Shown piece by piece: positions 116-27,916 of a DNA stretch of 45,513 nucleotides; the stretch's first letter is position 1, and the number at the start of each line of letters is the position of its first letter. The notes under the pieces are model-generated. The model was not told the DNA's origin. It searched no databases and was given only the letters and a program-made list of their open reading frames with translations. The position numbers and the translations under genes were made by a program. Source of the stretch: Oscillospiraceae bacterium (GTDB taxonomy: Bacteria > Bacillota > Clostridia > Oscillospirales > UBA929); the NCBI GenBank assembly GCA_031271665.1, contig JAISVI010000007.1, forward strand, positions 1 to 45,513, read 5' to 3'.

Positions 116-943
116 TTGAAGATTTTCGACGCGCACTGTGACACGCTTTCCGCCGGATTTGACCTTGGGCGCGGCGCGGGGCAGTTTGACACACAGCGCG
201 CAATAGCGCGCGGCGGCGGGGTTCAGGTAATGGCCGCCTTCGGCGCGGATCAGGAGGGGCAGCTTAGGCGGCTTTCCGGGTACGTCACGGACTGCCGCGA
301 GGCGCTTGAGCGCGGCGCGCTTGCGCTTATCCCGGCGCTGGAGGGCGGCGACGCCGTGACCTCGCTTGAAGACGCAGAAAGGCTTATCGGCTTGGGCGTG
401 CGCTTTTTCGGACTTACTTGGAATAATGACAACGCGCTTGGCGGCGGGTGCTTGGGGTCAAGCGGACTTACCGCGCTTGGCCGCGGAGTTACAGAGCTTT
501 GCGAAAACCGGGGCGTAACCGTAGATTTGGCGCACGCGTCGAAGCAGACGTTTTGGGACGTGCTGAACCGCGCAAAGCGCCCCCCCGCCGTCACCCACGC
601 CTGTGCCGAGACCCTCAGGGCGCATATGCGCAATCTGGACGACAGCCAGCTTCGCGCGTTGGGCGAGCGGGGCGGAGTAGTCGGAATCACCTTTTACGTT
701 CCGTTCCTGACGGATACGCCGTCGCTTGCGTTCGACGCGCTTATCGCGCATTTCCGGCACGCCGTAAGCATCGCCGGGGAAGACGCCGTTGGCATAGGCT
801 CGGACTTCGACGGCTGTGACGCGCTTCCGCCGGGGCTTGAGGACACATCGCGCCTGCCCGCGCTTATCGAAAGACTGCCGTTTCCCGGACGGATAAAGGA
901 CAAAATCGCGTACGGCAATTTCCGGCGGCTGATTACGGAATAA
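116..943 (+). CDS. membrane (renal-type) dipeptidase, peptidase M19 family
   Basis: 275-aa ORF with a TTG start. It has N-terminal FDAHCDT plus VDLAH and GSDFDG motifs typical of M19 dipeptidases. Its 3' end overlaps the convergent ATPase gene by 11 nt. Confidence 0.85.
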   Translation: MKIFDAHCDTLSAGFDLGRGAGQFDTQRAIARGGGVQVMAAFGADQEGQLRRLSGYVTDCREALERGALALIPALEGGDAVTSLEDAERLIGLGVRFFGLTWNNDNALGGGCLGSSGLTALGRGVTELCENRGVTVDLAHASKQTFWDVLNRAKRPPAVTHACAETLRAHMRNLDDSQLRALGERGGVVGITFYVPFLTDTPSLAFDALIAHFRHAVSIAGEDAVGIGSDFDGCDALPPGLEDTSRLPALIERLPFPGRIKDKIAYGNFRRLITE

Positions 944-2882: not shown

Positions 2883-2893
2883 ATGCGCGCCCC

Positions 2894-5590
2894 CTATACT
2901 GTAAAAAGCGTCTCCGGCGGGGTGTCGGTATTTTGCCGCGCGTGGCTTTGTTTAAGGTATTCCCGGGAAGACGGGTCGTCTTGACCTTTTTTAAGAATCT
3001 CCAGAAACGCGCGCCGCGCCCTTGTATAGTCCGCGCTGTAATAACAGTCAACCCCCTGCCGGAACATATCCAAGGACGCGTCCTTTTTTTGTATCTGCGC
3101 GGCTGTGTCGCCGTCATAGAAATCGTACAGATTTCGCGTTTCGCCGCCGTCACCGATTATGCCAAGTCTGCGAAAGCGGTAGACATTGGCGTTTTCCATC
3201 GCGTCAAACGCGCCCTGCTCGACCATAAGGCGGCATCCGTAGCGCAGTCCGACCGGGCGTATTTCGTCCGCCTTGTGGGAAAAGCGCGAAAACAGCGTCA
3301 TGTTAAGCCGCCCGCCGTCCCCGGCAACCCCCAGAAATGAATCCGCGTAGGCAAGAAGGATACTGCACTCGATTTCCCCGTACGGCGTCCCCGCCGCCTC
3401 TTCGTTAAGGCGGTTTACCGCCGCGAGCATTGAAAGTGCCGCGTCCGCCGCCTTGCTTGGCGCGCAGTCCAAAAGCGCGCGCAGTTCGCGGCTGTTGAAG
3501 CGCTCGGCAACGCCGCCGAATTTTGCGAGCGCCGGAAGTATCCGCGCGTAAAAGCGGTTAAGCGCGACCAGGTGGTCTTCGTGCGTGTCAAAGCTTTCCG
3601 TCATAAGCAAAAGAAACATGGCTCTTGTCTGAATACAGTCCGCGGCGCGCACGTCCCGGATTGACGCTTTGTCCAAAACGGACAGCATTTCGCGCGGAAC
3701 AAATCGGCTGTAGGCGTCGCTTACCGAGCGTATCTCGACAATCGCGTTTTCCACAGAGGCGGCCATGCTGTTGAACGCGCTTGCGATCTCGCCCGTTTCG
3801 TCCAGATTGCGCACGTTCACCCGCGCGCCGTAATCGCCGTCCGCCACGGCAACGGCCCCGCGCCGCAGTCTGCCAAGCGCCCGCATCGTCACGGCGAGGA
3901 CGGCGGCAAGCGCGGCGATAAGCGCCGAAAGCACATAAAGGCAAAGGCGCGTCATCTGGCTTACGACGCTTTCGATGTCCGCGGCCATATCCCATTCCGG
4001 GGTGCTTACCTCTAAAAGCCCGACAAGTGTCTCCCCGTCCAAAACCGGGTACATAAGGGACAGCCACGCCCCCTCGTCGGCGCGGTCATACTGGCGCATA
4101 AAGACGGGCACCGTGCGCTTTTCCAGTAAATAATCCCGTTCCTCGCCCTGCGCAAGCGTGCCGTGGTAGTCCATATCCAGATTGACTATCGAATTGTCGC
4201 ATACCGCCACATAAACGCGTTTCCCTTCCACGCGGTAAAGCCAGTAGTTCATATAAATCGTTGTGACCTGCTCGCCCTGGCTGCCATGTCCCGACGCGTC
4301 GTAGACAGTGCGCTGGTGAAGACCCGACCACCCCCGAAGCTGATTGCGAAGGGAAAGAAAGTACTCGCTTGAGAACGGCTCGTCCCAGTTTATCCGCGCG
4401 AAGCGGGCCGCGTTGATGCCGGAAACCTTCTCCCGCGAGTCGGACAGTATCGCCGCGCGCGCGCTTTCGTACATAAGCGCGCGTATGCGCCCCGCCGATA
4501 CCGCGATAATAACGGCGGTGCCGACGGCGAAAACAGGGACGACGGCAAGCGCAAGCTTCAAAACAAGACTGACCCGGCGGCGTTTGTAAATATGGCGCGC
4601 GGCGCACAGTATAATGACGGCGGCCGCCGCTTCAAGCGCCGCCGGAACAAGCGTCTTTCCCGTCAGCAGAAAGCGCGGCGGTACGCGGACTTCGGGGAAG
4701 TCGCGCGTCTCCCCCGAAACGGATACCCTATAGCCCCCGTCCTTTTTAAGCGCGACCCATGTGTCTTCGCTAAGGGCGTTTACGCGGTAAATGTCGCGTA
4801 TGCCTTCCCGCACGGCTTCAAAGGAATCCGCCCCGGGCGCAAGCTTCAGCAAGGCATCCCCGTTCTCGCTGTCCGCGGCGAACAGGTAAAGCGCGCCGCC
4901 CGCCGTGGAAAGCTGCACGGCGGACATGCTCCCCGGCAGGTAAATATCTTCCCATTCCGCTCCCCGCAAGCGGTATACGCGGGAATCCGGCGACACCGCG
5001 TAAAGCGTTCCGCCGTCGGCCACCGCAAACCATGTAAGCGCGAACGGCAGCGGCGCGGTATCCCAAAGGCGCGTCTCGCCACTTTGTATATCAACGCGGT
5101 AAACGGTTAAAGCGCCGCCTGTTTCCGCGTAGAAAAGCCCGCCTTGGGAAATCCCCCCGGCGATTTCAAGCAAGCCGCCCCGCATTTCGCAAAGTGTGCG
5201 CGTATGCCCGGTGCGCATGTCGCATACGGCGATAAAGCTGTTTTGCGTCTGGGGCGAAGCATAGGGAAGCTCGTTTATACTCAGATAGACAAGTTCGTCC
5301 TCTTCGGCAAGAATATGCACCGTCCGGCGGGTCTTTCCGTCCGCTCCGTTTTTGGAAAAGCCGACAGCCCGCATAAGAGCGCCCTCCGGGGAGATTTCCC
5401 TAAGCGTAAGCGTATCCCCCCGCGCGTCATGGATGTCGCAGACTGTCCCCCGCGCCGTTATCATGCGCTCGGCCGAGCCGCTTACGCCGCGCAGTTCCAG
5501 ACCGCGAAGCCATACGTTAATCGCGGTGATTGCCGCCGTGACAATAAGTAAAAGCGCGATAAACGCGGGCGTGAACATCTTGCCTTTCAT
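2894..5590 (-). CDS. polytopic membrane receptor: two extracytoplasmic domains, HAMP, degenerate class III cyclase-homology domain, TPR-like tail
   Basis: 898 aa with four hydrophobic TM segments. A HAMP-like segment (DETGEIASAFNSMAASV) is followed by FVPREMLSVLDKASIRDV, the usual entry into cyclase-homology domains. The positions expected to hold the metal-binding Asp residues read LLLMTESFDT and FNSRELRALL. Gaps to the neighbouring core genes are 6 and 11 nt. Confidence 0.8.
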   Translation of the reverse strand: MKGKMFTPAFIALLLIVTAAITAINVWLRGLELRGVSGSAERMITARGTVCDIHDARGDTLTLREISPEGALMRAVGFSKNGADGKTRRTVHILAEEDELVYLSINELPYASPQTQNSFIAVCDMRTGHTRTLCEMRGGLLEIAGGISQGGLFYAETGGALTVYRVDIQSGETRLWDTAPLPFALTWFAVADGGTLYAVSPDSRVYRLRGAEWEDIYLPGSMSAVQLSTAGGALYLFAADSENGDALLKLAPGADSFEAVREGIRDIYRVNALSEDTWVALKKDGGYRVSVSGETRDFPEVRVPPRFLLTGKTLVPAALEAAAAVIILCAARHIYKRRRVSLVLKLALAVVPVFAVGTAVIIAVSAGRIRALMYESARAAILSDSREKVSGINAARFARINWDEPFSSEYFLSLRNQLRGWSGLHQRTVYDASGHGSQGEQVTTIYMNYWLYRVEGKRVYVAVCDNSIVNLDMDYHGTLAQGEERDYLLEKRTVPVFMRQYDRADEGAWLSLMYPVLDGETLVGLLEVSTPEWDMAADIESVVSQMTRLCLYVLSALIAALAAVLAVTMRALGRLRRGAVAVADGDYGARVNVRNLDETGEIASAFNSMAASVENAIVEIRSVSDAYSRFVPREMLSVLDKASIRDVRAADCIQTRAMFLLLMTESFDTHEDHLVALNRFYARILPALAKFGGVAERFNSRELRALLDCAPSKAADAALSMLAAVNRLNEEAAGTPYGEIECSILLAYADSFLGVAGDGGRLNMTLFSRFSHKADEIRPVGLRYGCRLMVEQGAFDAMENANVYRFRRLGIIGDGGETRNLYDFYDGDTAAQIQKKDASLDMFRQGVDCYYSADYTRARRAFLEILKKGQDDPSSREYLKQSHARQNTDTPPETLFTV

Positions 5591-5596
5591 ATACCG

Positions 5597-5983
5597 CTAT
5601 CCCACCATGATTGTGGCCTGCCCGGCAAAGCTTACGGTAATCGCGCCGCCCCACATGCACCGGCACTGCGAAGAGTCCGTAAGCGCGGGCTGCCCGCCTA
5701 TCGTTACCGTGGAAGAGCCGGGCGACCAGGGCGCGGCGACGCTTGGCACACAGGGCATCGGCGTAAGCGCGCCCATCGCCGCGGCGGTTGCCGCCGCCAC
5801 CGTGGGATTGCTTATGGAATTGCACATAGCAAACGGCATGATATTCACAAGCGGCTTATTATCCATTATGTTCGCCATCGGCATCATATTAACCACCTTG
5901 TTCTGCGGCAATACGTTAAGGACCGAGGGCGCGGCGCCGAACGGGCATTTCGTCACCGCCCCGCCGCAAACGCCAAACCCCAT
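5597..5983 (-). CDS. DUF4280 (PAAR-like) spike-tip protein
   Basis: 128 aa. GAVTKCPFGAAPSVLNV...NIMPFAMCNSISNPTVAAATAAAMGALTPMPCVP...PWSPGSSTVTIGGQPAL...CRCMWGGAITV matches the DUF4280 pattern almost position for position. Confidence 0.9.
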   Translation of the reverse strand: MGFGVCGGAVTKCPFGAAPSVLNVLPQNKVVNMMPMANIMDNKPLVNIMPFAMCNSISNPTVAAATAAAMGALTPMPCVPSVAAPWSPGSSTVTIGGQPALTDSSQCRCMWGGAITVSFAGQATIMVG

Positions 5984-5998
5984 ACGACCGACTACCTC

Positions 5999-6643
5999 TC
6001 ATAATTCAATTTTCTCTGTCATACCGCCGCGCAGGATATACAAAAGCCGCGCGTTTTCCGGTATCGGCACTCGCGCCGCGCCTTCCCCTATACGGAAAAG
6101 CGGCGTCACGCGGGAACGCGCGGGGAAATCGCGTACCGCCGGCTCCGAAAGGACATACTTTCCCCGTCCGCCTCCGGCGTTTAAGAAAACCGGGGTCTCC
6201 GTCCCGTCCGGGGCAGAGAGTATGTGCATAAGCCCCGACAAATCGGCGTAATCCTCTTTGCGCAGACTTATATCGCGCCCGCCCGCCCGCGTTTCGGCGC
6301 ACAGGGCATAGCCGCCGCGCTCACCGCGAAAGCCGATGTGCGCGCCGCCGTCAAGTTCGTAAACGCGCCCCCTCGCAACATGACGCGCAAGCAGCGCGGC
6401 GCGCAGAAAACCCTCGCCCTCCGAAACGCGCAGGGTAATCCCCGCGTAAAACTCCGACGCGACGGCCACAAGCGCCGGACGCGTTCCCGTGAAGACAAAG
6501 TGTCCGTCTTCCTTGGCCGCCGGGACGCAAAACCCGTCCGCGCCGCGTACGCGCAGCGAACGGTCGCCGGGCCAAACCGGCCTTCCCGTGGCAAAGTCGT
6601 CAAGGCGCACCACAAGCGAAGCCTTTACAAATCGAGCCGTCAT
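5999..6643 (-). CDS. hypothetical CIS-associated protein (N-terminal beta-sandwich, carboxypeptidase-regulatory-like pattern)
   Basis: 214 aa. Its start overlaps the stop of the DUF4255 gene by 4 nt, suggesting translational coupling. The N-terminus (LVVRLDDFATGRPVWPGDRSLRVRG..EDGHFVF) resembles prealbumin-like beta-sandwich domains. No other motif was recognised. Confidence 0.6.
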   Translation of the reverse strand: MTARFVKASLVVRLDDFATGRPVWPGDRSLRVRGADGFCVPAAKEDGHFVFTGTRPALVAVASEFYAGITLRVSEGEGFLRAALLARHVARGRVYELDGGAHIGFRGERGGYALCAETRAGGRDISLRKEDYADLSGLMHILSAPDGTETPVFLNAGGGRGKYVLSEPAVRDFPARSRVTPLFRIGEGAARVPIPENARLLYILRGGMTEKIEL

Positions 6644-7179
6644 ATATCCCGCGTTTCAAGCCCCGCCGCCCCGACGCGGGCGACGGGCGTAAACCTTTGC
6701 GACGCGACCGCGATTGGCGCGCATCGGTAAAACAGGGAAAGGCGGTACGCCGTGCCGGAAAACTGCCATATCTTGCTTACCCTGTCCTCGTCCGGCGAAA
6801 GCAGTTCTATCCGGGGCGCGGGTATGACGGCGGGCTGTACCGCGCCGGAGAAGGGCAGCACGTAAATGTCGGTCCAAAGCCGCATTACCCGTTCCAGAAC
6901 CTTATAGTCGTCCGCCAGACCGGATTTCTTCCCGGCATAGGATGTGACCATAAAGCGCATTTCGGCGCACAGGGGCGGTGCCTCTTTGCCCCCGTCCACG
7001 CGCAGGGCGTCCGTAAGCTGATAGCGCGCGTCCTTTACAAGGCTGTACGGGAACACCCCAAGCAGACATGTCTCGTCCATGTCCGCAGGCGAGCGAAGGC
7101 CGATCTGTCCGGGCTGAAGCAGCGGCGGAAGCCCGGCTCTAAGCGCGGACAGGATTGCCTGTGTAATATCCGAAAGCAT
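6640..7179 (-). CDS. DUF4255 tail terminator/cap protein (Afp16/Pvc16-like)
   Basis: 179 aa. The N-terminus (MLSDITQAILSALRAGLPP...IGLRSPADMD...LGVFPYSL) and the later MRFMVTSYA segment are typical of the DUF4255/Pvc16_N family. Confidence 0.85.
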   Translation of the reverse strand: MLSDITQAILSALRAGLPPLLQPGQIGLRSPADMDETCLLGVFPYSLVKDARYQLTDALRVDGGKEAPPLCAEMRFMVTSYAGKKSGLADDYKVLERVMRLWTDIYVLPFSGAVQPAVIPAPRIELLSPDEDRVSKIWQFSGTAYRLSLFYRCAPIAVASQRFTPVARVGAAGLETRDI

Positions 7180-7221
7180 GGCAAATCCCCCTATTTAACA
7201 CGTTCGGGCGCGGGGATTGTG

Positions 7222-7389
7222 CTAAGAGCCTGTTTACTATCTGTTCGCGGATGGGCTTTTGAGTTAAATTCGATGTGCCGCAAGGAAAAAGCGGAGTGAA
7301 TGCTTTGTGCATTCACGAGCATTTTGACGCGGCGGAACGCGAATTCAGCCAAAAGACCGCCGCACAACAGATAGTAAACAGGCTCTAAG
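7222..7389. mobile_element. 158-bp palindromic (MITE/ERIC-like) element with 19-bp terminal inverted repeats and a 5-bp CTAAG direct duplication
   Basis: The inverted repeat AGCCTGTTTACTATCTGTT (7227-7245) pairs with AACAGATAGTAAACAGGCT (7366-7384). CTAAG occurs at 7222-7226 and 7385-7389. The interior is a long imperfect hairpin with a central GTGAATGC/GCATTCAC stem. Removing the element plus one CTAAG copy restores an 11-nt intergenic gap. Confidence 0.7.
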
Positions 7390-8130
7390 GAATATAACGC
7401 CGCCATCCTCCGACGGGACGGGGTCTTCCGGGGGCGGGGACGTGGATTCCGGCGTGGGTTCGGGCGTCGGTTCCGGCGTGGGCGTGGGCGTTGGCGTGGG
7501 TTCGGGGGACGGCGTTGGGGAAACGGCCGGCTTTCCGTCCGGGCCGTATTCAACCCCGGCCTGCATCCGCGCGCCCTTCAGGTATTTGCCGGAAAAGACG
7601 GGATGCCCGGTTTCGGGGTTATACTCCGTCCCCTCGCCGTCAAAAAGCCCCGCTGAAAATTCGCCCTTATAGCAAACGCTGCCGCCTTCGTAAAGCGTAC
7701 CCTGCCCATGAAACAAATTGGCCTTAAACCCGCCGCTGTATCTGACGAGGCCGTCCGCGCCGTAAAGCGTCCCCGCCCCGTCATACCGGTTTTCCTGAAA
7801 GCCGCCCTCGTACAAAAGCTTTCCGTCTTCGTAAAGCCGCCCCTGTCCGGCGACGACGCCTTTGTCAATCTCGCCTTCGTATACAAGCGTTCCGTCCGGC
7901 GCAAGAAGCCTTGCCCGCCCGGTATACTCCGCAAGATAGGGCGAGTGCACCGAAAACTCCGGCACGGCTTTTTGGGAAATAATAAAGCGTATGACCGCCG
8001 GGTGTATTAAAAGCGCGTACGTGACTGCGGCGGCAAGCAGGGCGCAGGCAAGCCGCCACAGAAAGGCAAGGCTTGCAAAGCGCCGCCCCAGACGGACATA
8101 ACCCTTGATTTTACGGTGTGACGCTTTCAT
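7345..8130 (-). CDS. N-terminally TM-anchored MORN-repeat protein with a Pro/Thr-rich tail
   Basis: 261 aa. A TM segment (LAFLWRLACALLAAAVTYALLI) is followed by about six YEGxFxxxxxxGxGxL MORN-type repeats and then PTPSPEPTPTPTPTPEPTPEPTPE. The last 14 codons lie inside the palindromic element. The start overlaps the upstream gene by 20 nt. Confidence 0.85.
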   Translation of the reverse strand: MKASHRKIKGYVRLGRRFASLAFLWRLACALLAAAVTYALLIHPAVIRFIISQKAVPEFSVHSPYLAEYTGRARLLAPDGTLVYEGEIDKGVVAGQGRLYEDGKLLYEGGFQENRYDGAGTLYGADGLVRYSGGFKANLFHGQGTLYEGGSVCYKGEFSAGLFDGEGTEYNPETGHPVFSGKYLKGARMQAGVEYGPDGKPAVSPTPSPEPTPTPTPTPEPTPEPTPESTSPPPEDPVPSEDGGVIFLRACLLSVVRRSFG

Positions 8131-11314: not shown

Positions 11315-11326
11315 GCCGCTTCCCCC

Positions 11327-12421: not shown

Positions 12422-12423
12422 GA

Positions 12424-14856: not shown

Positions 14857-15261
14857 TTAGACTCCCTCCGTCAGAAAGAACGGGTATACCAAATTAAACG
14901 GGCTGTTTGTGCTGCGCACCGTGTACTTGATGTCCAGACGGAAACCGCCGCTTGAGCCTTGCGGGAAATCCGCCTCGGCCTCGATGTTTGTGATGCGCGG
15001 TTCCCACAGGCCAAGCGCCTCTTCCGCCGCCTCGCGTATCCTGGCGCGCGTGCCGTAACTGTCGGCGGCGAAGACATACTCGTGAAGCCTTGAGCCGAAT
15101 TCCGGGCGCATAAGCCGCTCGCCAAGCCGCGTGGACAGGATTATGTGTATGGCCTGCTTGATGTCCTGTTCGTAAAGCGCAAGCCTTACGCGTCCGCTTG
15201 CTTTGTCCGTTCCCACCGGGAAGGCAAGACCGCCGCCCAAAAAGTCCTTGGTGTAATCCAT
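14857..15261 (-). CDS. GPW/gp25-family baseplate wedge protein (Afp9-like)
   Basis: 134 aa. DIKQAIHIILSTRLGERLMRPEFGSRLHEYVF is the classic gp25 motif. Confidence 0.9.
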   Translation of the reverse strand: MDYTKDFLGGGLAFPVGTDKASGRVRLALYEQDIKQAIHIILSTRLGERLMRPEFGSRLHEYVFAADSYGTRARIREAAEEALGLWEPRITNIEAEADFPQGSSGGFRLDIKYTVRSTNSPFNLVYPFFLTEGV

Positions 15262-15269
15262 TGCCGCCC

Positions 15270-15448
15270 CCCCTTAGTTCAGAGCTTGCTGAATAAGCGC
15301 ACTGTTACGCTTCACAACTTTTTTCGACCGGCAAATTCGGAATTTTTCGCTTTGGTTTCTGCGAAACAAAGCTCCAAAATTCTGAATTTGACAACTCGCG
15401 CCTTCGGTGCTTCGGGTCGAAAAAAAGTTGTTCAGCAGCCCCTTAGTT
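15270..15448. mobile_element. about 159-bp palindromic (MITE/ERIC-like) element flanked by a direct repeat of up to 10 bp (CCCCTTAGTT)
   Basis: CCCCTTAGTT occurs at 15270-15279 and 15439-15448. The interior folds as a long imperfect hairpin: CACAACTTTTTTCGACC/GGTCGAAAAAAAGTTGT, AAATTCGGAATTTT/AAAATTCTGAATTT, and a central GCTTTGGTTTC/GAAACAAAGC stem. Removing it restores a 12-nt gap between the spike and gp25 genes. Confidence 0.65.
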
Positions 15449-16162
15449 TATCTTCGTCATAGAACCCTTCAGCGTCAGTATGCCGCTGCTTTCCACTTTG
15501 ACGTTCGCGCCGGTAAGCTCGGCGCTTTGCGCGTTAAGCTTCGCCGTACTGCCGTCAAGCTTTACCTGCTTGCCTTTAAGGGTAAGGGCGTTTTCCGCGT
15601 CAAGCGTCACGGACTGCCCTTTAAGCGTTATCTTGCCGGTGATTGTAATTGTTTCCGCCTTGATGTCAAGCTTATCCCCGGACTCCAGTTTGACGGACGT
15701 GCCGTTTTCGTCCAGTTCAAGCTTCTGCTTCCCGTCATTCGTTTGTATTTTTATTTTTTTTGCCTTCTCGTCAATCTCGATGACATGCCCGGATTCGCTC
15801 TTAACGGTTATCTTCCCGTCGTCGCCGTCTTTAAGCGTGATGCTATGCTTTCCCTTGGTGACAAACTTCCGTATAAGGTTGTCTTTGTCGGCGGTTTCCG
15901 CCGGGACGGTGTTCTTCGTGTTCCAAAGACTGCCAAGGACGACCGCGCAGTGCGCGTCCCCGCCGATAAACCCCACTATAACCTGCGCGCCCTTTTCCGG
16001 CAGAAGGTACACGCCGTAATCCTTCCCCGCATACGGCGCGGCCACGCAAAGCCATTCGGTCGCGCGTCCCTCGGCGTCAAAGGAGGGGAAGGACACCCTC
16101 ACCATGCCGGGGTGCTTGGCGTCGTAGTTCTCGGTAACGGTTCCAAGTATAAGTCCGTTCAC
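15443..16162 (-). CDS. gpV/VgrG-like central spike (Afp8-like)
   Basis: 239 aa. The N-terminus (GTVTENYDAKHPGMVRVSFPS...EWLCVAAPYAGKDYGVYLLPEKGAQVIVGFIGGD) is a gpV/gp5 OB-fold signature. The C-terminus consists of repetitive beta-helix-like K/T/L-rich repeats. Confidence 0.9.
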   Translation of the reverse strand: MNGLILGTVTENYDAKHPGMVRVSFPSFDAEGRATEWLCVAAPYAGKDYGVYLLPEKGAQVIVGFIGGDAHCAVVLGSLWNTKNTVPAETADKDNLIRKFVTKGKHSITLKDGDDGKITVKSESGHVIEIDEKAKKIKIQTNDGKQKLELDENGTSVKLESGDKLDIKAETITITGKITLKGQSVTLDAENALTLKGKQVKLDGSTAKLNAQSAELTGANVKVESSGILTLKGSMTKIN

Positions 16163-16169
16163 CGCTTTT

Positions 16170-17201
16170 CTAACCTCCTATGCCGATTTCCGTGACGAAG
16201 CCGTCTTCGCTGTTCATGCGGTGATGCACGGAAACGACGGTAAATCTGTCCCCGGTAAGCGCGGCGAAGGGGCATTTGTTAATCTTGATTTTCTGCCCAA
16301 GCTTCACTTCCGGTATGCCCCGGCAGTATACGCGGCCGGCGACCGCTTCGCGCTTGGCGGCGTCCGCAGCCGCCGCCACCACGGCCTTGCCCGCGTCGCC
16401 AAGCAAGTGCGGCGGCAACGGTATGATGCGCGTGACCGCAAGAAGATTTTTCTGCGTTCCCTTCGCGTCCTTTTGCGAGGAGAATTCTTCCATCTTGGCG
16501 TGGTCGTAACCCATGCCGGTAATTTTCAAATCCACATACCTTGCGCCAAGTTCCAGTTCCGTGTCGGGCCAGTCAAACTCCACGCAGACCGTGTCCTTCG
16601 CGCCGCCCACATACGCCTTGCCGCAGTCGATGTAAAAGTAATGCCCGCGCAAATCGGCAGCGTCCTGAATAAAGTCCAAATCGCCGCCCGCCTGCGTCAC
16701 GCAGACCTCTTTCTCAAGCGCCGCGAGGGTGACTTCCTTGGCGCTTACCAACGGGCTGTACAGATCCAGAAGGCTTTCGGCGATATTCTGAACGGTTTTC
16801 CCCTTCGCGGCGGTATAGCGCGCGCCAAGGCGCATAAGCGCGCGGGCGTCCAGGCATACGGCGCTTAGGCAGATGTTTTCGCCGTCAAAGCGCATGGCAA
16901 GCTCGTCGACATACCCCGAGAACACTTCGCTTACGCTGCTTCCGTAGCCAAGGGAAAGCGAAATACGGCTGCCCGGTTTAAGCTTGTCAAGCGCGGTTTG
17001 CGAGAACTGGCCGGAACCGTGTTCATATACGTCGTGAACCGTGAAGGCGCACGCCCCTGCGGTTTTGCCCATGCCGTTATCCACCGTGATGCCGTCAATC
17101 ATAAACTCGCTTCTTGAAAGCTCGCTGCCCGCGCCGAAGACCTTGTACGCGGGGACGGTGAAGCCGCCGTATGCCGTCCTTAAATCGGAATACTTGCTCA
17201 T
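16170..17201 (-). CDS. late control gene D-like baseplate hub protein (Afp7-like)
   Basis: 343 aa. Its size, its position immediately upstream of the spike gene and its pattern (F.V.V.G......F....V.......A..C.F.V) fit the gpD family. It overlaps the LysM gene by 4 nt. Confidence 0.8.
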   Translation of the reverse strand: MSKYSDLRTAYGGFTVPAYKVFGAGSELSRSEFMIDGITVDNGMGKTAGACAFTVHDVYEHGSGQFSQTALDKLKPGSRISLSLGYGSSVSEVFSGYVDELAMRFDGENICLSAVCLDARALMRLGARYTAAKGKTVQNIAESLLDLYSPLVSAKEVTLAALEKEVCVTQAGGDLDFIQDAADLRGHYFYIDCGKAYVGGAKDTVCVEFDWPDTELELGARYVDLKITGMGYDHAKMEEFSSQKDAKGTQKNLLAVTRIIPLPPHLLGDAGKAVVAAAADAAKREAVAGRVYCRGIPEVKLGQKIKINKCPFAALTGDRFTVVSVHHRMNSEDGFVTEIGIGG

Positions 17202-17836
17202 CGCTTTTCAATGGGCGGGATTTTCAGCACCATGCCCGCCTGTACGCGGCGCGGGTTGCGTATGCCGTTGGCTGCGGCGATACGCCGCCACTCCCCGCAG
17301 TCGTTATAGGCGTCAAAAGCCACAAGGTAAAGCGGCGTATCCGGCCCAAGCACCCGCCGTTTGGTGCGGTCGGGCGATTCAAGCCCCGGCTTCGCGCCCT
17401 TCTTGCCCTGAATCGTTATGCTGACCGTGGCGCGAACCGGCTTCCCCTCGGCGGTGAACATGGTGAAATTGACGTTCAAGGCGGTTATGTGGCCGCTGTA
17501 TTTGGTGGTTCCCCACTCGAAGGTACAGCCGGGGGGCTTATGCAAATCCGGCTTTATCCGCACAAGCTCGCGAAGCGCCTTGACCTTGCCGGAGATGTCT
17601 TTGGCGTCCTTTTCGCTTGCGGAGTTTGCCGGAAAGCCGTCAAGCGTCATTTTAAGGGAAAGGGTGCTGCTTCCCTCGCCGATGAATTCCGTCTTTCCCT
17701 GCGCGTCGGCAACGCCCTTGGCGTCCGCGTACTTGGGGGCGTAATCCACCGTGAAATCCGCGGGGTTAAAATCAAAGTTTATGCGGCTTGTCTCTTTCTC
17801 CTTGTCGTCCAAAACGACAATGCACGCTTTCTCCAT
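17198..17836 (-). CDS. CIS tube-initiator protein with C-terminal LysM domain (Afp5/Pvc5-type)
   Basis: 212 aa. The N-terminal FDFNPADFTV... tube-like fold is followed by a C-terminal LysM (YLVAFDAYNDCGEWRRIAAANGIRNPRRVQAGMVLKIP). Confidence 0.85.
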   Translation of the reverse strand: MEKACIVVLDDKEKETSRINFDFNPADFTVDYAPKYADAKGVADAQGKTEFIGEGSSTLSLKMTLDGFPANSASEKDAKDISGKVKALRELVRIKPDLHKPPGCTFEWGTTKYSGHITALNVNFTMFTAEGKPVRATVSITIQGKKGAKPGLESPDRTKRRVLGPDTPLYLVAFDAYNDCGEWRRIAAANGIRNPRRVQAGMVLKIPPIEKR

Positions 17837-17839
17837 GCC

Positions 17840-18292
17840 CTACCCCCGCCGTCTTGTTTCGTATTCCGCTTCCCGCCGGATTTGCGCGCGCGTTTCGCGC
17901 ATGTTTTTGCGGGTCAGTCCGCGCGCCTCGGCGCGCAGCTCTTCGCCCATTTTTACAAGGCGGCCGTCGGTATAGCGCCGCTCGTCTTTAAGTCTGCGCT
18001 CGGCGGCCGCGAAAAAAAGCTCGGTCTGGCGCTTTGCGCGGCGCGAGGAGTCAAGCCAGCGCGTTTCGGCGGTATTTATCCGCCTGTGCCAGTCGTCGGA
18101 AAGGCGCTTTATGTCGCGCCCGACAGTCTGAAGGATGCCCCGCTCTAAACTCTGCCGCGCGAAGGCCGCCCTCTGCGCGGTCTTTTTGGCGTCCGCCCGG
18201 TGGGAAAGCGTGAACAGGTTATTAAACCCCGGCTCGCGCGCGTAGCGTTCGGACACGGTATGAAGCAAATCTGTCACTTTGACGGCCTGCAA
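17840..18292 (-). CDS. short Arg/Glu/Ala-rich helical protein; only tape-measure (Afp14-like) candidate
   Basis: 150 aa with a predicted all-helical composition and no recognised domain. It lies between the tube paralogue and the tube-initiator, and overlaps the upstream gene by 19 nt. The function is inferred from position only. Confidence 0.5.
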   Translation of the reverse strand: MQAVKVTDLLHTVSERYAREPGFNNLFTLSHRADAKKTAQRAAFARQSLERGILQTVGRDIKRLSDDWHRRINTAETRWLDSSRRAKRQTELFFAAAERRLKDERRYTDGRLVKMGEELRAEARGLTRKNMRETRAQIRREAEYETRRRG

Positions 18293-18699
18293 AGCGCAAT
18301 CCCGCCGTGAAATACCGAAAAGGTTTCAATCAGCACCGAGGAATCCTGCGCGTCCAGTTTGGACAGCTCGATTGACTCCACAACGGGTGACGCAACGCTG
18401 TAGGAAACGCTTGCCTCTCCGTTTTCGTTAAGGATGTCGATTTGCATTTCGTCGGCGATCTTTTCGCCGGGGCGGAAATTGCTTAAAGCACCCGCCGGGG
18501 ACACGCCACGCTCCATCACAAGCTTTCCGGGTTCTTTGACGGGTATGGCAAGCATAACGGGGGCGTCGTTCTGCCCGCCGACCTGAAGCGGCTCGAAAGA
18601 AGCCGACAGCTTTATTCCGCTTATCGAGCGGAAACCAAGGGCGCTTCCCCGTATCATAACGGCAAAGCGGCAGGAGGCAAGAAGGCCTTCTCTTCTCAT
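18274..18699 (-). CDS. second tail-tube paralogue (T4 gp19 family)
   Basis: 141 aa. FAVMIRGSALGFRSISGIKLS...LVMERGV pattern parallels the main tube protein. Confidence 0.8.
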   Translation of the reverse strand: MRREGLLASCRFAVMIRGSALGFRSISGIKLSASFEPLQVGGQNDAPVMLAIPVKEPGKLVMERGVSPAGALSNFRPGEKIADEMQIDILNENGEASVSYSVASPVVESIELSKLDAQDSSVLIETFSVFHGGIALCRPSK

Positions 18700-18717
18700 G
18701 GCACACCTCGAACAGTT

Positions 18718-18745
18718 CCCTCTAAAACCACGGGTTTTTAGAGGG
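18718..18745 (-). promoter_or_regulatory. intra-operon RNA hairpin overlapping the stop of the small ORF
   Basis: CCCTCTAAAACC-ACG-GGTTTTTAGAGGG forms a 12-bp stem with one bulged T. It lies between the abundant sheath/tube genes and the baseplate genes. No U-tract follows it on the sense strand. Confidence 0.3.
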
Positions 18746-18884
18746 CCTCGAACAGGTTGTCCGGCGCGCCGGACTGCTCTTTGTTAATGGCGGAAACGCG
18801 GGCGCACCACTCATGGCGCTCGCCGTGCGCAAGGGTCATCAGTTCCTCACGCGGCCAGTGCAGGTAATACGCAAGAAAGGCCAT
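18738..18884 (-). CDS. small conserved CIS-associated ORF (DUF6760-like motif), ATG-initiated minimum version; possibly expressed as a -1 frameshift extension of the chaperone
   Basis: This ORF falls below the length cut-off of the ORF track. The -1 frame reads ..VITYPASRLYEEMAFLAYYLHWPREELMTLAHGERHEWCARVSAINKEQSGAPDNLFEAL*. The YEE.AF.AY..HW....L..L.H.ER..W motif is one I recall from about 60-aa proteins in CIS loci. No canonical start codon occurs before the ATG at 18884. Confidence 0.5.
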   Translation of the reverse strand: MAFLAYYLHWPREELMTLAHGERHEWCARVSAINKEQSGAPDNLFEAL

Positions 18885-18895
18885 TTCCTCGTAAA

Positions 18896-18941
18896 GGCGG
18901 GACGCGGGATATGTGATTACCGCCCCGCCCGCAGAAAATTT
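18896..18941 (-). promoter_or_regulatory. candidate -1 ribosomal frameshift signal (slippery A_AAT_TTT plus downstream stem-loop)
   Basis: The heptamer AAATTTT (18935-18941) lies in the X_XXY_YYZ register of the chaperone frame (GTA AAT TTT). After a 5-nt spacer there is a 9-bp GC stem GGCGGGGCG/CGTCCCGCC (18896-18929). Confidence 0.35.
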
Positions 18942-19288
18942 ACCGGAATCGACACCTTTTCCCCGCAGACCGGGCAGTGTTCCTCATAGCAGGGGCTTTC
19001 CGTCTGGTTTACGCGGTTATACAAATCCTGCAGATAAGCAAGGTCTTGGACGAAAAGCCCTTCTATAACCGCCTCTCCAAGCTGTTTCACCGTCCCAAGC
19101 GAAGTGACCACGCGGGCAAGGATAAGGATTATAAGATACTCCGGGTTTTCCTTCACGCGCGGGTCGCGAAGCGGAAGGATTTCGTCCGCCGCCGTCGCGA
19201 GGCGCATTTTCCCGGCGCGGTGAAGCGTACCGTCCGAATCCGCGTAGCCGCGCGGCAGGCAAAAGTCATATTCTGTCTGAAGCATCAT
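18917..19288 (-). CDS. tail assembly chaperone-like protein (P2 gpE / Mu gp41-like) with C-terminal CxxC
   Basis: 123 aa. DGTLHRAGKMRLATAADEILPLRDPRV resembles the gpE/gp41 chaperone motif (G....v.LR.pt..De). The C-terminus has CPVCGEKVS. It overlaps the tube gene by 4 nt (ATGA). Confidence 0.65.
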   Translation of the reverse strand: MMLQTEYDFCLPRGYADSDGTLHRAGKMRLATAADEILPLRDPRVKENPEYLIILILARVVTSLGTVKQLGEAVIEGLFVQDLAYLQDLYNRVNQTESPCYEEHCPVCGEKVSIPVNFLRAGR

Positions 19289-19713
19289 TTGGTTCTGGTC
19301 ATTCCCTCGTGGGCCAGTTCAAGTTGCTCTATGGCCACCTCGCTGGCCGTGGCGTTGAACTCGGGGCCGGTGTACTTGACCGGCCACGCCTGGACAATCT
19401 GCCAGGCCGCGACTTCGTCGCCGTTCTCGTTAAGAAGCGTCACCGACACGGTTTTGCGCACGATGTCCTTTTCAAAACTGGGACTCATCCAGTCATAGGC
19501 GGCCTTGCTTGCCGTAAGACCCCATTTGAAGACAATGTTGCTGTATTTGCGCAGCCCCGGAAGCTTAATCGGCGTGGGGGGCATCATGTTGCCCTCGCGG
19601 TATTCAACCACGTCGATGCTGGCGTCAAAACCGGTGATTTCGGAAAACCCGGCTTCCGCGCCGCCAAAGTCCACCTTGTACTTAAACCTTGTAAACGGGT
19701 ATGTATTCGGCAT
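19285..19713 (-). CDS. CIS tail tube protein (Afp1-like, T4 gp19 family)
   Basis: 142 aa. FKYKVDFGGAEAGFSEITGFDASIDVVEYREGN...KLPGLRKYSNIVFKWGL is the canonical tube signature. A strong RBS (AGGAGGGGAG) precedes it. Confidence 0.95.
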   Translation of the reverse strand: MPNTYPFTRFKYKVDFGGAEAGFSEITGFDASIDVVEYREGNMMPPTPIKLPGLRKYSNIVFKWGLTASKAAYDWMSPSFEKDIVRKTVSVTLLNENGDEVAAWQIVQAWPVKYTGPEFNATASEVAIEQLELAHEGMTRTK

Positions 19714-19727
19714 AGTATGCTCCCCTC

Positions 19728-21443
19728 CTATTCAGTGGCGGTTTTCTGCGTAAGGCGGAAGATGACAAATTCGGCGGGCTTGACCGGCGCGATGCCGATA
19801 ACGCAGATCAGCCGCCCGTTGTCAATGTCCCCCTGCGACATGGTAGAGTGCCCCACCTGAACGTAAAACGCCTCTGCCGAAGACGCGCCCGCAAGCGCCC
19901 CGTCGCGCCACAGGCCGGACAGGAACACCTCGATAGTGCGCTGTACGCGCGTCCAAAGCGTTTCGTCGTTCGGCTCGAACACGACCCAGTTTGTGTTTGC
20001 CTTGATACTTTCCTCGACAAAAATGAAAAGGCGGCGCACGTTTATGTATTTCCAAAGCCCGTTCGAGCTTGCGGTGCGCGCGCCCCAGACGTTTATGCCC
20101 TGGCCGGGGAACGAGCGGATAAGGTTGACGCCGCGCGGGTTAAGGATGTCCTGCTCGCCCTTGTTATACTGAACGCTTAGTCCGGCGCAGGCGCGCACAA
20201 CCTCGTTCGCGGGGGCCTTATGCACGCCGCGCGTGGCGTCGCTGCGCGCGTATATGCCGATAACCGAACCCGAGGGCGGGATATGGATGTTTTTCTGGTC
20301 AAGCGGGTCAAACACCGAAAGCCAAGGGTGGTACAGCGCGGCGTACTGGGTGTTGAAAAGCTCGCGGTGCGCAATAAGCTCGTCCGTCTTGGCAAGTTCC
20401 TTGGGCATGTCAAGCACCGCGAAGCGCGAGGCAAGGGTTTCGCAGTGCGCGACAAGGGTAAGCTGTACGTTCGCGTCGGTAATCCCCGGCACGGCCATAA
20501 TACTGCATACGGGATTGTCGATAAACGCCTGAATGCCCGTGCGCTTGCCGGGGCCGTTATCCTCGCCGATGAAGGTGCCGGCGGAAACGCTGTCGGCGGT
20601 ACCGCTTGACCCGCCCGCGAAGCCGATTGTCAGTTCCTGTGTCTCATCCCCCGCGATAAGCTTAAACGGCGGCTCCGCGCCCTCGGGTATGTCGCCAAGC
20701 GTGACGCGGACAAGTTCGGATCTGGCCATTTTCTTGACGATATGGTTCGGGATTGCGGGGTTCAGCGAAAGGTTTCCATAGTTCTCGGCCACATCGTCAT
20801 GATAGACGTCCAGATTGAACTCGCAGGTATACAAAAGCTTTTTCGGCACAATTGCGTCGTCGGCGTCGCCCTCGTCAAGCGCCTCGGCAAACTCCAGTAC
20901 ATTGTCCTGGGATTTGACCACGCGGTTATACTTCTTCTCTTCGCCGTCGGAAAGCATCACAATGTCCCCGGCGTAAAAGCCCGCGCCGCTTTTTACCGCC
21001 GCCCGCGTCGGCTCGAGCAGCTTCATAATCTGCGTTTTGGCCTTGCTTGCGGGGGTGATGACCGCCTTCAGGTCGTTGCCCCACGCGCCCGCGCTTGCGG
21101 CGGTCAGTTTAAGGGGGGATTCGTGCGCCGCTTCGGCAATTTTCGCGTCGGAGGGGATGACGCGGCTTATAAAGGCGCGGGTTCCGCCGTTGATAAAGAA
21201 ATGCTCTGCCGCATAGGCAAGATACCGGTAATCGCCGAACTCAAGCGCGCTTAAATAACCGCCGTATTTGCGTTTGTAATCCGCAATCCCCGTTACAAGC
21301 TGGGGAATGCCGCCGACAGGGCCTTTTGCCGCAAGTCCGACAAACCCCGCCGTGGAAGTCCCCACACCTTCCATCGGCACGGGGCCGCTGTCAAATTCCT
21401 CGACGTAAACGCCCGGGGACAGGTATTCGGGCATACTGCTCAT
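19728..21443 (-). CDS. CIS contractile sheath protein (Afp2-4-like)
   Basis: 571 aa. The N-terminus (MPEYLSPGVYVEEFDSGPVPMEGVGTSTAGFVG) is canonical for tail sheaths. The true start is probably the second ATG at 21434, which lies 9 nt after the GGGAGG RBS. Confidence 0.95.
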   Translation of the reverse strand: MSSMPEYLSPGVYVEEFDSGPVPMEGVGTSTAGFVGLAAKGPVGGIPQLVTGIADYKRKYGGYLSALEFGDYRYLAYAAEHFFINGGTRAFISRVIPSDAKIAEAAHESPLKLTAASAGAWGNDLKAVITPASKAKTQIMKLLEPTRAAVKSGAGFYAGDIVMLSDGEEKKYNRVVKSQDNVLEFAEALDEGDADDAIVPKKLLYTCEFNLDVYHDDVAENYGNLSLNPAIPNHIVKKMARSELVRVTLGDIPEGAEPPFKLIAGDETQELTIGFAGGSSGTADSVSAGTFIGEDNGPGKRTGIQAFIDNPVCSIMAVPGITDANVQLTLVAHCETLASRFAVLDMPKELAKTDELIAHRELFNTQYAALYHPWLSVFDPLDQKNIHIPPSGSVIGIYARSDATRGVHKAPANEVVRACAGLSVQYNKGEQDILNPRGVNLIRSFPGQGINVWGARTASSNGLWKYINVRRLFIFVEESIKANTNWVVFEPNDETLWTRVQRTIEVFLSGLWRDGALAGASSAEAFYVQVGHSTMSQGDIDNGRLICVIGIAPVKPAEFVIFRLTQKTATE

Positions 21444-24048: not shown

Positions 24049-24076
24049 AAATTCGCCGCGCGGCGCGCCCGGCGGC

Positions 24077-24272
24077 GCGAAGCAAGTACCCGCTGACGCA
24101 TGAATGTCCAATTTGCGCAGACTAAATGTAGGGGCGGTCGTCCCCGACCGCCCGTAACCCCGGAAAATCCCGCAGGCGCGGGCGACCGAGGACGGTCGCC
24201 CCTACATGAGGATGCCGGTTTTTGTGCATTCTGTGTCTTCATGCGTCAACCGTGGCGAAGCAAGTACCCGCT
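24077..24272. repeat. 160-bp palindromic element flanked by an 18-bp direct repeat (GCGAAGCAAGTACCCGCT)
   Basis: The direct repeat occurs at 24077-24094 and 24255-24272. Terminal inverted repeats are GACGCATGAA and TTCATGCGTC. Two nested GC hairpins are present: ATGTAGGGGCGGTCGTCCCCGACCGCCC and GGGCGACCGAGGACGGTCGCCCCTACAT. It shares the 11-mer TTTGTGCATTC with the element at 7227-7384. Confidence 0.6.
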
Positions 24273-24333
24273 ATGGACAAATCTGGCACGGCATGTTACA
24301 ATATGCGAAGATTTAATTGTGGGAGGCGCTTGA

Positions 24334-27824: not shown

Positions 27825-27825
27825 A

Positions 27826-27916
27826 TAATTGACAATGTACAATTGACAATTGACAATTATTTGACGACAAAAACCGGACTATAATTGACAATTGTTCATT
27901 GTCAATTGTCAATTGC
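27826..27916. repeat. array of palindromic CAATTG hexamers / TTGACAAT units in inverted blocks between the convergent fhs and spoIIID genes
   Basis: CAATTG occurs at 27840, 27847, 27889, 27903 and 27910, with 7-bp phasing inside each block. The left block (27827-27858) and the right block (27883-27915) are mutually complementary and could form a long hairpin. The right block encodes the last residues (AIDN) of SpoIIID. Confidence 0.6.

Follow-up and report, generated by a model that had tools for sequence, protein, structure and literature searches.

The window analysed here, a stretch of 45,513 nt with a G+C content of about 60%, corresponds to positions 1 to 45,513 of contig JAISVI010000007.1 from an Oscillospiraceae bacterium (GenBank assembly GCA_031271665.1). 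Between positions 933 and 21443, its minus strand carries an operon of 20 open reading frames (ORFs) of at least 120 aa and one conserved 48-aa ORF, all of them co-directional. To judge from the protein families that it encodes, this operon is a class-II contractile injection system (CIS) of a Clostridia-type bacterium.

Layout of the locus and core structural genes

The genes of the operon are tightly packed, and their junctions range from an overlap of 38 nt (10205-10242) up to a gap of 15 nt (5984-5998), exactly as claimed in the original prediction, which had been made from the sequence of this stretch. Three wider intergenic gaps are present, at 7180-7344 (165 nt), 15262-15442 (181 nt) and 18700-18916 (217 nt). 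The first two correspond to long imperfect palindromes and the third to a real small gene; both statements had been anticipated, and they are borne out by the folding of the palindromes and by a DUF6760 match, respectively. All 20 large ORFs are intact. An additional ORF, at 7191-7553, was rejected as a gene: it is an artefact that arises when the Pro/Thr-rich linker encoded by the MORN gene (see below) is read in an alternative frame.

Families were assigned using Pfam cut-offs and, further, by means of NCBIfam, PHROG and PDB sequence searches. For the comparison among species, a Cis11 homologue profile was searched against 185,579 species-representative genomes, and the best 80 stretches were used for a locus comparison by tblastn of all window proteins against these 80 loci, with flanks to 10 kb (individual loci are designated by L numbers). 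Every core part of a CIS is encoded in the operon. The parts are described below from the sheath gene onwards, and all of them lie on the minus strand.

The sheath protein (Cis2; 19728-21443) matches Phage_sheath_1 (1.6e-17) and Phage_sheath_1C, as well as sheaths of known structure. It is followed by tube protein 1 (Cis1a; 19285-19713; Phage_T4_gp19, 4e-42), by a tail-assembly-chaperone-like protein of 123 aa with a C-terminal CxxC motif (18917-19288), and by tube protein 2 (Cis1b/Afp5-like; 18274-18699; Phage_T4_gp19, 7e-11). Then comes a highly charged, helical protein of 150 aa (17840-18292), which is assigned to the tape-measure slot by position alone and had no match in Pfam, NCBIfam or PHROG scans. 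It is uncertain whether this protein is a short ruler or cargo. Across the clade, the length of the gene in this slot is bimodal: 12 loci have one of about 150-230 aa, and another 25 have one of about 850-2100 aa. If the gene is a ruler, particle length should vary several-fold among species.

The tube initiator (Cis7/Afp7-like; 17198-17836) matches CIS_tube (1e-30) and carries a C-terminal LysM domain that scores 20.3 against a cut-off of 20.9. The spike is split between two genes: (i) a gpD/gp27-like hub (16170-17201), with a Phage_GPD match of 4.7e-07 (29.7 bits against a cut-off of 30.1) and a PDB match to the VgrG chain 9rce_F (8e-6); and (ii) a gpV/gp5 spike with an OB-fold and a beta-helical C-terminus (15443-16162; Phage_base_V, 1e-22), which bears no toxin extension.

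The baseplate genes start with a gp25-like wedge (Cis9; 14857-15261; GPW_gp25, 1e-21). Two Baseplate_J proteins follow, namely Cis11a, of 810 aa (12424-14856; Baseplate_J, 5e-8), whose best PDB match is the Streptomyces Cis11 (9gtp, 2e-16), and Cis11b, of 364 aa (11327-12421; Baseplate_J, 2.4e-6; TIGR02243, 5.5e-42; phrog_6, baseplate wedge). The next gene encodes a Tail_P2_I/Cis12-like baseplate adaptor (10205-11314), with matches to TIGR02242 (63.6 bits against a cut-off of 51.85), CIS12_fam (6.7e-25) and Tail_P2_I (16.5 against 20.6). It is followed by a Cis13-like protein of 427 aa (8959-10242) of the baseplate periphery or 'fibre' type, composed of a conserved N-terminal domain, a Pro-rich linker and a variable beta/Ig-like C-terminus. 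This protein had been described as an Ig-domain fibre-like protein. Its N-terminus does match CIS13_fam (6.8e-23, residues 9-151), but the Ig_3 match is weak (E 0.036), and PDB searches gave insignificant matches only (E 0.029 or worse). The N-terminal domain is kept in 66 of the 80 loci and fits the eBAP3 + Tail_P2_I architecture (PMC12923769).

The set is closed by three further components: (i) a Pvc16_N/DUF4255 cap (Cis16; 6640-7179; Pvc16_N, 5.3e-15, 56 bits against a cut-off of 27); (ii) a DUF4280 PAAR-like spike tip without an extension domain (5597-5983; DUF4280, 3.4e-33; IglG PAAR-like, 9e-11); and (iii) an AAA+ ATPase in the Cis15/Afp15 position (933-2882), with a long N-terminal region and the AAA domain at residues 431-555 (1.2e-28). 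The link of the ATPase gene to the locus is conserved, but the gene lies upstream of the sheath gene in L007, L008, L012, L013 and L032. In the PDB it finds generic CDC48/p97 matches only, so that orthology with Afp15 is putative and derives from position. PDB sequence searches with the chaperone, with the cap and with the accessory protein p214 (see below) returned no matches.

In general terms, the CIS components that had been read from the translations are recovered by Pfam and NCBIfam, the chaperone excepted; Phage_GPD, LysM and Tail_P2_I are borderline but otherwise backed. The combination of cap, AAA+ ATPase and DUF4280 tip supports the assignment of the operon, at the level of its gene families, to a complete CIS of the extracellular CIS (eCIS)/Afp-PVC superfamily. 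The term 'complete' holds for the core parts but not for the MORN accessory gene, which lacks a C-terminal domain of about 150 aa found in its closest relatives.

A predicted frameshift extension of the chaperone

The chaperone-like protein is 57-84% identical across the clade. It had been called gpE-like, a designation for which the PHROG match is weak (phrog_508, E 0.0048) but for which a conserved -1 frameshift cassette provides strong support; the 123-aa protein would be the zero-frame product of the frameshift pair. The frameshift region was compared in 44 loci, that is, the window and 43 related loci (e.g., L001:6059-6256). In each of the 44, a slippery heptamer, A_AAT_TTT (18935-18941 in the window, minus strand), is found in frame and at the identical position, 24 nt ahead of the end of the chaperone stop codon, as expected of a programmed -1 frameshift. 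A GC-rich stem-loop (about 18896-18929) lies 5-6 nt past the heptamer. By hand count, this hairpin is paired in 86% of cells, with conservation and little covariation, and it falls within doubly coding sequence; RNAalifold predicted no consensus structure for the region.

The small ORF at 18738-18884 (48 aa) corresponds to DUF6760 and is located in the -1 frame of the chaperone-like gene. As a predicted C-terminal extension of the chaperone, the domain would span 18738-18938 (PF20546, 4.5e-10): adding the -1-frame residues that precede the ATG lifts its score from 39.9 to 47.5 bits, and the -1-frame peptide between the heptamer and this 'first Met' is conserved (YPAxxIYEE). Furthermore, 29 of the 44 loci have no start codon in the DUF6760 frame. 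The universal heptamer, taken together with these start-less copies, implies that DUF6760 is the frameshift extension of the CIS tail assembly chaperone, in the form of a predicted fusion whose trans-frame junction peptide would read ...SIPVNF and, directly after the junction, SAGGAVITYPASR...

The chaperone and DUF6760 thus bear what looks, in their sequences, like the signature of a G/GT-type or E/E+E'-type frameshift pair. As in phages lambda (G/GT) and P2 (E/E+E'), a small chaperone gene is found between a tube gene and the tape-measure slot, together with an X_XXY_YYZ heptamer, a -1-frame extension (here, the predicted DUF6760) and a downstream hairpin. No earlier description of frameshifting in a CIS chaperone was found in the literature searched, subscription journals being outside the search. 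The finding would give DUF6760 a role and set right how a small gene that seems to be 'start-less' is annotated in these loci.

Distribution, gene order and nearest relatives

Relatives of Cis11 are found in 327 stretches of the species-representative genomes. The best 80 of these 327 come almost entirely from metagenome-assembled genomes (MAGs) and isolates of Clostridia, including Lachnospiraceae, Oscillospiraceae, Ruminococcus, Ruminiclostridium, Enterocloster, Flavonifractor and Syntrophomonadaceae. The nearest loci belong to 'Clostridiales bacterium UBA929' and to a termite-gut Oscillospiraceae MAG, with 62-64% identity. As far as the window goes, the Clostridia affiliation of the host derives from these CIS relatives. 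Organisms in culture or open to cultivation also have syntenic loci, namely Flavonifractor sp. An92 (L015), Anaeromicropila populeti 743A (L057) and Lachnospiraceae bacterium ZAX-1 (L021); locus L066 is from a MAG of Enterocloster bolteae, a species of which cultured strains exist. A search for a protein identical to the sheath found none. When the same profile was run against 2.9 million viral contigs (IMG/VR), it gave a single weak, partial match.

The lineage is cellular, widespread and bioinformatically known. Firmicute eCIS loci, and the GerE/LuxR regulators beside them, have already been catalogued (PMC8213781, PMC12923769, PMC11566945), and the eBAP3 + Tail_P2_I baseplate type of Bacillota has been published (PMC12923769). 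With 327 relatives, mostly in gut and rumen Clostridia, and with such catalogues at hand, the rarity that the original prediction had implied does not hold. The literature search described above found no experimentally characterised member from Bacillota. As far as that literature shows, no member of the lineage has been imaged or functionally studied, and hundreds of Clostridia species encode it, many of them dominant gut or rumen commensals (Lachnospiraceae, Oscillospiraceae, Ruminococcus, Enterocloster).

Gene order is conserved among the loci. The first half runs sheath, tube, chaperone, DUF6760, tube 2, tape-measure slot, LysM initiator, hub, spike and gp25; the second half runs Cis11a, Cis11b, Cis12, Cis13, pseudokinase, MORN protein, cap, (p214), DUF4280 tip and HAMP protein. 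The ATPase gene is placed either last or directly upstream of the sheath gene.

Among solved structures, the best relative of the sheath is Cis2 of Halogeometricum borinquense (9ezm, 1.1e-109), followed by the Streptomyces CIS sheaths (8bky, 4e-104; 8bl4, about 1e-101). Matches to the sheaths of PVC, AFP, tCIS and AlgoCIS are about 60 orders of magnitude weaker (about 1e-45 to 1e-50; Pvc2/Afp2-3, about 1e-49), and those to pyocin R2 (3j9q) and to the sheath entry 8kee reach only about 1e-15.

Membrane proteins encoded among the structural genes

Three proteins of the operon carry predicted transmembrane (TM) helices, in numbers of one, one and four: a pseudokinase, a MORN protein and a HAMP protein. 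The first of them (283 aa; 8111-8962, minus strand) has a single C-terminal TM helix at about residues 232-262, which would anchor a cytoplasmic kinase-fold domain; it has no signal peptide, and its extracellular tail is of about 20 residues, with a conserved 'IGTV'. Its AlphaFold (AF2) model, built from a six-sequence alignment (pLDDT 68), has a beta-rich N-lobe and a helical C-lobe, as in kinases. Foldseek returned 168 PDB matches at 1e-3 or below; the top one is the YukC/EssB pseudokinase of the Bacillus subtilis type VIIb secretion system (T7SSb) core (9qks_C; 1.9e-5, TM-score 0.52), and the other 49 among the matches listed are protein kinases. The protein is classified, on the basis of this model, as a probable pseudokinase because the catalytic Lys, the HRD Asp and the DFG Asp are not conserved across nine aligned homologues. 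The family comprises 93 representatives, nearly all of 270-305 aa, and it is syntenic in 11 loci.

YukC/EssB, the pseudokinase scaffold of T7SSb (9qks, 6z0f; PMC12637312), shares with the 283-aa protein a layout in which an N-terminal cytoplasmic pseudokinase precedes a TM helix, inside the operon of a secretion machine. Nevertheless, the two are only 13% identical and show no significant homology in sequence; the extracellular domain of YukC is large, in contrast to the approximately 20 extracellular residues found here, and the window contains no other T7SS parts.

The MORN protein (261 aa; 7345-8130, minus strand; MORN, 3.4e-8) has a basic N-terminus, one N-terminal TM helix as an anchor, and a Pro/Thr linker; according to the positive-inside rule, its repeats are predicted to face outward. 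The start of its gene overlaps the stop of the pseudokinase gene by 20 nt. Homologues occupy the same position in 63 of the 80 loci, and 58 of these 63 have the N-terminal TM helix. Compared with its closest homologues (L001:16591-17796 and L002:5465-6700), the copy in the window lacks one MORN unit in addition to the C-terminal domain of about 150 aa. In the searched literature, subscription journals again lying outside the search, no earlier description of a link between MORN proteins and CIS was found. Between the MORN and cap genes there is a palindromic element of about 200 nt with 55-nt arms (7207-7404; RNA fold z = -8.1), which resembles a MITE- or REP-type insertion and from which the MORN gene takes its final 19 codons.

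The third protein (898 aa; 2894-5590, minus strand) is of the sensor type. It has four TM helices and two extracellular domains, followed by HAMP (7.5e-9), by a cyclase-homology domain of class III that is degenerate, and by a tail resembling TPR. When the C-terminal 320 residues and six homologues were combined into a profile, this matched bPAC (1e-10), CyaC-type (2e-8) and other class III cyclases in the PDB, and the last 60 residues of the protein give weak matches to TPR proteins; a Pfam scan of the cyclase-like region alone found no match even at E 5, Guanylate_cyc included. Because both metal-binding Asp residues and the transition-state Asn/Arg are replaced in every aligned member (7/7), the protein is predicted from its sequence to be a catalytically dead pseudo-cyclase. 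It is found in 11 loci, and its C-terminal half is syntenic in 9 distant loci, in which a shorter version with two TM helices occupies the same position.

A further accessory protein, p214 (214 aa; 5999-6643, minus strand), belongs to no sequence family in Pfam, NCBIfam, PHROG or PDB searches. Its AF2 model (pLDDT 73) is all-beta and two-domain, with a transthyretin/CarboxypepD_reg-like N-domain; by Foldseek, it resembles 5aq0 and 9hfj at TM-scores of 0.64-0.74 over about 80 residues, with no match at 1e-3 or below and no enzyme fold.

The original prediction had placed membrane and signalling-type proteins in the non-core slots, and this is what was found. By sequence and synteny, the non-core genes appear to form a conserved membrane module (pseudokinase, MORN protein and HAMP-pseudocyclase) whose conservation reaches well past the close relatives, and none of the non-core proteins is a recognisable toxin.

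Phage, type VI secretion and toxin genes

No capsid, portal, terminase, integrase or holin/endolysin gene is present in any ORF of the 45.5-kb window, which extends 0.9 kb beyond the end of the ATPase gene. As the original prediction had maintained, the locus is not a prophage tail: head and lysis genes are absent, the flanks are housekeeping genes, and Cis11 is nearly absent from the 2.9 million viral contigs as against 327 occurrences in species genomes. Nor is it a type VI secretion system (T6SS), another point on which that prediction was right. Neither TssB/C/K/M-type families nor TssJLM, TssF/G or ClpV were found by Pfam and NCBIfam, and the sole T6SS-named match is that of the DUF4280 protein to IglG PAAR-like; a canonical T6SS was rejected in view of this lack of T6SS-specific families in the window.

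Pfam and NCBIfam detected no toxin domain and no DUF4157, a marker associated with many eCIS effectors, in any ORF of the window. The description of the system as toxin-less is, in consequence, adequate as far as recognisable toxins encoded in cis are concerned; it does not cover the tape-measure-slot gene, which could be cargo, or effectors that may lie elsewhere.

Comparison with known systems

The haloarchaeal membrane-bound CIS of Halogeometricum borinquense, also termed 'archaeal T6SS' (clade IIa; 9ezm; PMC11566945), provides the best sheath match. It shares with the system in the window the split Cis11a/b-type baseplate genes and the presence of a conserved membrane protein tied to the cluster. 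Subtype IIa is the one expected for the window as well. The haloarchaeal anchor candidate, Hbor_38620, has six TM helices and a cytoplasmic domain of about 150 aa, whereas the window encodes three other membrane proteins and no 6-TM protein, so that they are set apart by their descriptions. Besides, the haloarchaeal cluster has toxin-immunity pairs, none of which was found in the window, and its envelope is an S-layer instead of a Gram-positive wall.

The cytoplasmic CIS-Sc of Streptomyces coelicolor (subtype IId; 8bky, 9gtp; PMC12237407) provides the second-best sheath match and the best Cis11 match, and it has a single-protein Pvc16-type cap, as here. Its adaptor, CisA, combines a disordered N-terminus with a periplasmic substrate-binding-like domain and, again by description, differs from the pseudokinase, which has almost no extracellular domain. 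CIS-Sc has neither fibre nor tape-measure genes, and it is associated with DUF4157 proteins (Sle2; PMC13277306); the window, on the contrary, has a Cis13-like gene and a tape-measure-slot gene, and lacks DUF4157.

AFP, PVC and AlgoCIS share the same parts list, including the cap, the AAA+ ATPase, the LysM initiator and the PAAR-like tip. But these systems possess three paralogous sheath proteins and a VgrG in fused form, together with adenovirus-like fibres of the Afp13 type and toxins encoded at the 3' end. The operon in the window has a single sheath gene, separate genes for hub and spike, a baseplate of the Tail_P2_I/eBAP3 type and no recognisable toxin, and it includes genes for membrane proteins. 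R-type tailocins, such as pyocin R2 and diffocin, are an example of toxin-free contractile killing, a possible mode for a toxin-less particle. They lack the Pvc16 cap and the AAA+ ATPase and have lysis cassettes, and the window shows the reverse.

Mode of action

The reading favoured here, for which the chances seem about even, is that of a cell-bound CIS recruited to, or triggered at, the cytoplasmic membrane, with firing possible in either direction. It is favoured because (i) the nearest characterised relatives are cell-bound and have membrane adaptors, which are required or proposed in both of them (CisA, PMC12237407; Hbor_38620, PMC11566945); (ii) three conserved membrane proteins are embedded among the structural genes; (iii) the cytoplasmic domains of these proteins would be pseudo-enzymes of the scaffold kind, as in YukC; (iv) the Tail_P2_I/eBAP3 baseplate is likened to TssG/TssK, this type having been reported as TssK/TssG-like (PMC12923769); and (v) lysis genes, toxins and DUF4157 are absent from the window.

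The machine itself, unlike its mode of action, has good support from homology: a baseplate consisting of gp25, the two Baseplate_J proteins, and the Cis12-like and Cis13-like proteins surrounds the hub, the OB-fold spike and the DUF4280 tip. The LysM initiator, the two tube proteins and the single sheath protein polymerise upon it; the Pvc16_N cap ends the tube, and the AAA+ ATPase accompanies the machine. Sequence conservation suggests that assembly would proceed via the G/GT-type chaperone pair, namely the 123-aa protein and its DUF6760 fusion produced by -1 frameshifting, and that the operon would be turned on by the MalT/LuxR protein encoded divergently from it. The subsequent step is more uncertain: relatives and gene content suggest that the particle, assembled in the cytoplasm, may be recruited to the cytoplasmic membrane, or triggered there, by the in-operon membrane module. 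This module would comprise the tail-anchored pseudokinase that resembles the T7SSb scaffold YukC/EssB, the TM + MORN protein translationally coupled to it, and the sensor-HAMP protein with a dead cyclase and a TPR output. A catalytically dead cyclase domain implies that the HAMP protein may act as a scaffold or switch, and not as a producer of cyclic nucleotides. Firing would be directed to the outside, in the T6SS-like manner known from haloarchaea, or else against the membrane of the cell itself, as happens in Streptomyces, and the payload may be the puncture itself or an unrecognised or distantly encoded cargo.

Several points weigh against a cell-bound machine. Membrane localisation of a Bacillota CIS would follow from relatives and gene content, and the membrane proteins could be expression regulators instead of anchors. 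The pseudokinase fold derives from a moderate AF2 model (pLDDT 68, TM-scores of 0.25-0.5), and the kinase matches of its sequence profile are non-significant (E ~0.2). Pseudokinase and HAMP proteins were found in 11 of the 80 loci, a count that is partly due to the 10-kb flank cut; they are perhaps not universal. The shortened MORN gene may mean that the accessory function is impaired in this window. A machine that fires outward would also have to get through a thick Gram-positive wall. Finally, a cap and an AAA+ ATPase together with a Cis13-like protein of variable, Ig-like C-terminus are also a signature of released eCIS, and PVC particles can be given a new target by an eBAP3 fibre from Paenibacillus (PMC12923769).

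The last point leads to the possibility of a classical extracellular CIS, assembled in the cytoplasm and released by lysis from a subpopulation, in which the Cis13-like C-terminus would bind the target, killing would be due to puncture, as with a tailocin, or to distant cargo, and the membrane proteins would only control expression. The hallmark set of Pvc16_N cap, AAA+ ATPase and DUF4280 tip is present, and a Cis13-like protein with conserved N-anchor and variable C-terminus, encoded after Tail_P2_I, corresponds to the eBAP3 'fibre' architecture that is reported to be common in Bacillota; HAMP, LuxR and MalT are typical signalling parts, and Firmicute eCIS-associated proteins have proven toxic to E. 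coli (PMC8213781). Nevertheless, this possibility, the main rival of the cell-bound machine, is less likely than the latter: lysis genes, toxin genes and DUF4157 are absent in and beside the operon, and dead cyclase and kinase domains fit scaffolding better than signalling to a transcription factor. Likewise, the membrane genes lie among the structural genes (between Cis13 and cap, and between tip and ATPase), which they overlap or nearly abut. Since the best solved relatives (9ezm, 8bky, 9gtp) are cell-bound, the extracellular nature implied by the term 'eCIS-type particle' in the original prediction is not established.

A Streptomyces-like intracellular CIS, which in response to stress or in the course of development (e.g., sporulation) would attack the membrane of the cell that produces it and bring about regulated cell death, would require neither a toxin nor target recognition. 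The high similarity of the sheath and Cis11 to those of CIS-Sc, the absence of a toxin and the presence of a sensor-type protein, which could report envelope stress, are consistent with it. Even so, it seems improbable, given a Cis13-like protein with an Ig-like domain and a tape-measure-slot gene that are both unlike CIS-Sc, and given the absence of a DUF4157/Sle2 homologue. Sporulation of the host is without support as well: the family scans of the window yielded no sporulation gene, and nothing in it backs the earlier description of the bacterium as endospore-forming. In any case, an intracellular CIS overlaps with the cell-bound machine favoured above, from which it differs in the direction of firing alone.

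A prophage tail module, an R-type (diffocin-like) tailocin or a decaying remnant has hardly any probability left, for, although the parts are phage-derived, including the G/GT-type frameshifted chaperone, and two palindromic insertions and a shortened accessory gene could indicate decay, the window lacks head, portal, terminase, integrase and lysis genes and has housekeeping flanks, 20 of the 20 large ORFs are intact and tightly coupled, tailocins do not have the cap and the AAA+ ATPase, the sheath matches those of 3j9q and 8kee at the low level given above, and the family is almost absent from IMG/VR.

Returning to the cell-bound CIS, a more specific and decidedly tentative version of it, which we regard as possible rather than probable, is a Gram-positive counterpart of T6SS-like systems. 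The machine would be docked to the cytoplasmic membrane of monoderm Clostridia by a YukC-like/MORN/HAMP-pseudocyclase platform, and a signal from the envelope would make it fire through the wall to the outside; hundreds of Clostridia species of gut and rumen would share this platform. If the CIS of Clostridia are cell-bound, they would serve Gram-positive gut bacteria either as a weapon that depends on contact or as a means of regulated death, which would bear on the structure of gut communities. The pseudokinase/MORN/HAMP-pseudocyclase module provides concrete candidates for docking and triggering in a monoderm envelope.

Regulator, flanking genes and repeats

Divergent from the sheath gene, a gene on the plus strand (21595-24048) encodes a MalT-like STAND ATPase with TPR and a LuxR/GerE helix-turn-helix domain (Pfam GerE, 7e-13, and TPR_MalT; NCBIfam MalT, 3e-40). 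It is also a neighbour of the locus in L001 and L003 (50-53% identity), and GerE regulators flank 25.8% of eCIS loci (PMC8213781); going by sequence and position, this protein is likely the regulator of the locus.

The flanks had been described as housekeeping genes, which is correct. On the ATPase side there is an M19 dipeptidase gene, convergent with the ATPase gene. On the sheath side, the regulator is followed by lgt, folD, fhs, a VanX-like dipeptidase gene, nadA, mltG (YceG), a HEPN/nucleotidyltransferase pair, alaS, the gene for a HIT protein, comEC and glgB. Synteny of the flanks with the CIS relatives tested is absent, and the housekeeping proteins of the window have no relatives at 90% identity or more. 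In Clostridiales bacterium UBA929, the next gene after the operon has the same orientation and codes for about 1,390 aa (L082:18875-20825); its product contains domains of purple acid phosphatases and metallophosphoesterases and is no obvious effector. Since the gene after the operon is phosphatase-like in UBA929 and an M19 dipeptidase in the window, the block of CIS and regulator sits in differing genomic contexts.

The gap between the spike and gp25 genes contains an imperfect AT-rich palindrome of about 120 nt (15310-15430; RNA fold z = -4.5), unrelated in sequence to that at 7207-7404. In the closest relative, L001, this gap is merely of about 60 nt. An attenuator, an RNA stability element and a mobile element are candidates for the nature of this palindrome. 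The window as a whole was scanned for Rfam families (at the gathering threshold) and for tRNAs, without a match; this includes a 30-nt sequence present twice, with 70% identity, between the LuxR regulator gene and lgt (24071-24100 and 24249-24278).

Just upstream of alaS, at 34868-35550, two overlapping genes encode the HEPN (130 aa) and nucleotidyltransferase (116 aa) proteins, which form a toxin-antitoxin module of the typical HEPN/MNT kind and have nothing to do with the CIS operon. Finally, the intergenic region between fhs and the VanX-like gene contains, directly after the fhs stop codon (27825-27914), clustered repeats of the TTGACAATTGACAATT type in direct and inverted orientation, which look like an operator array.

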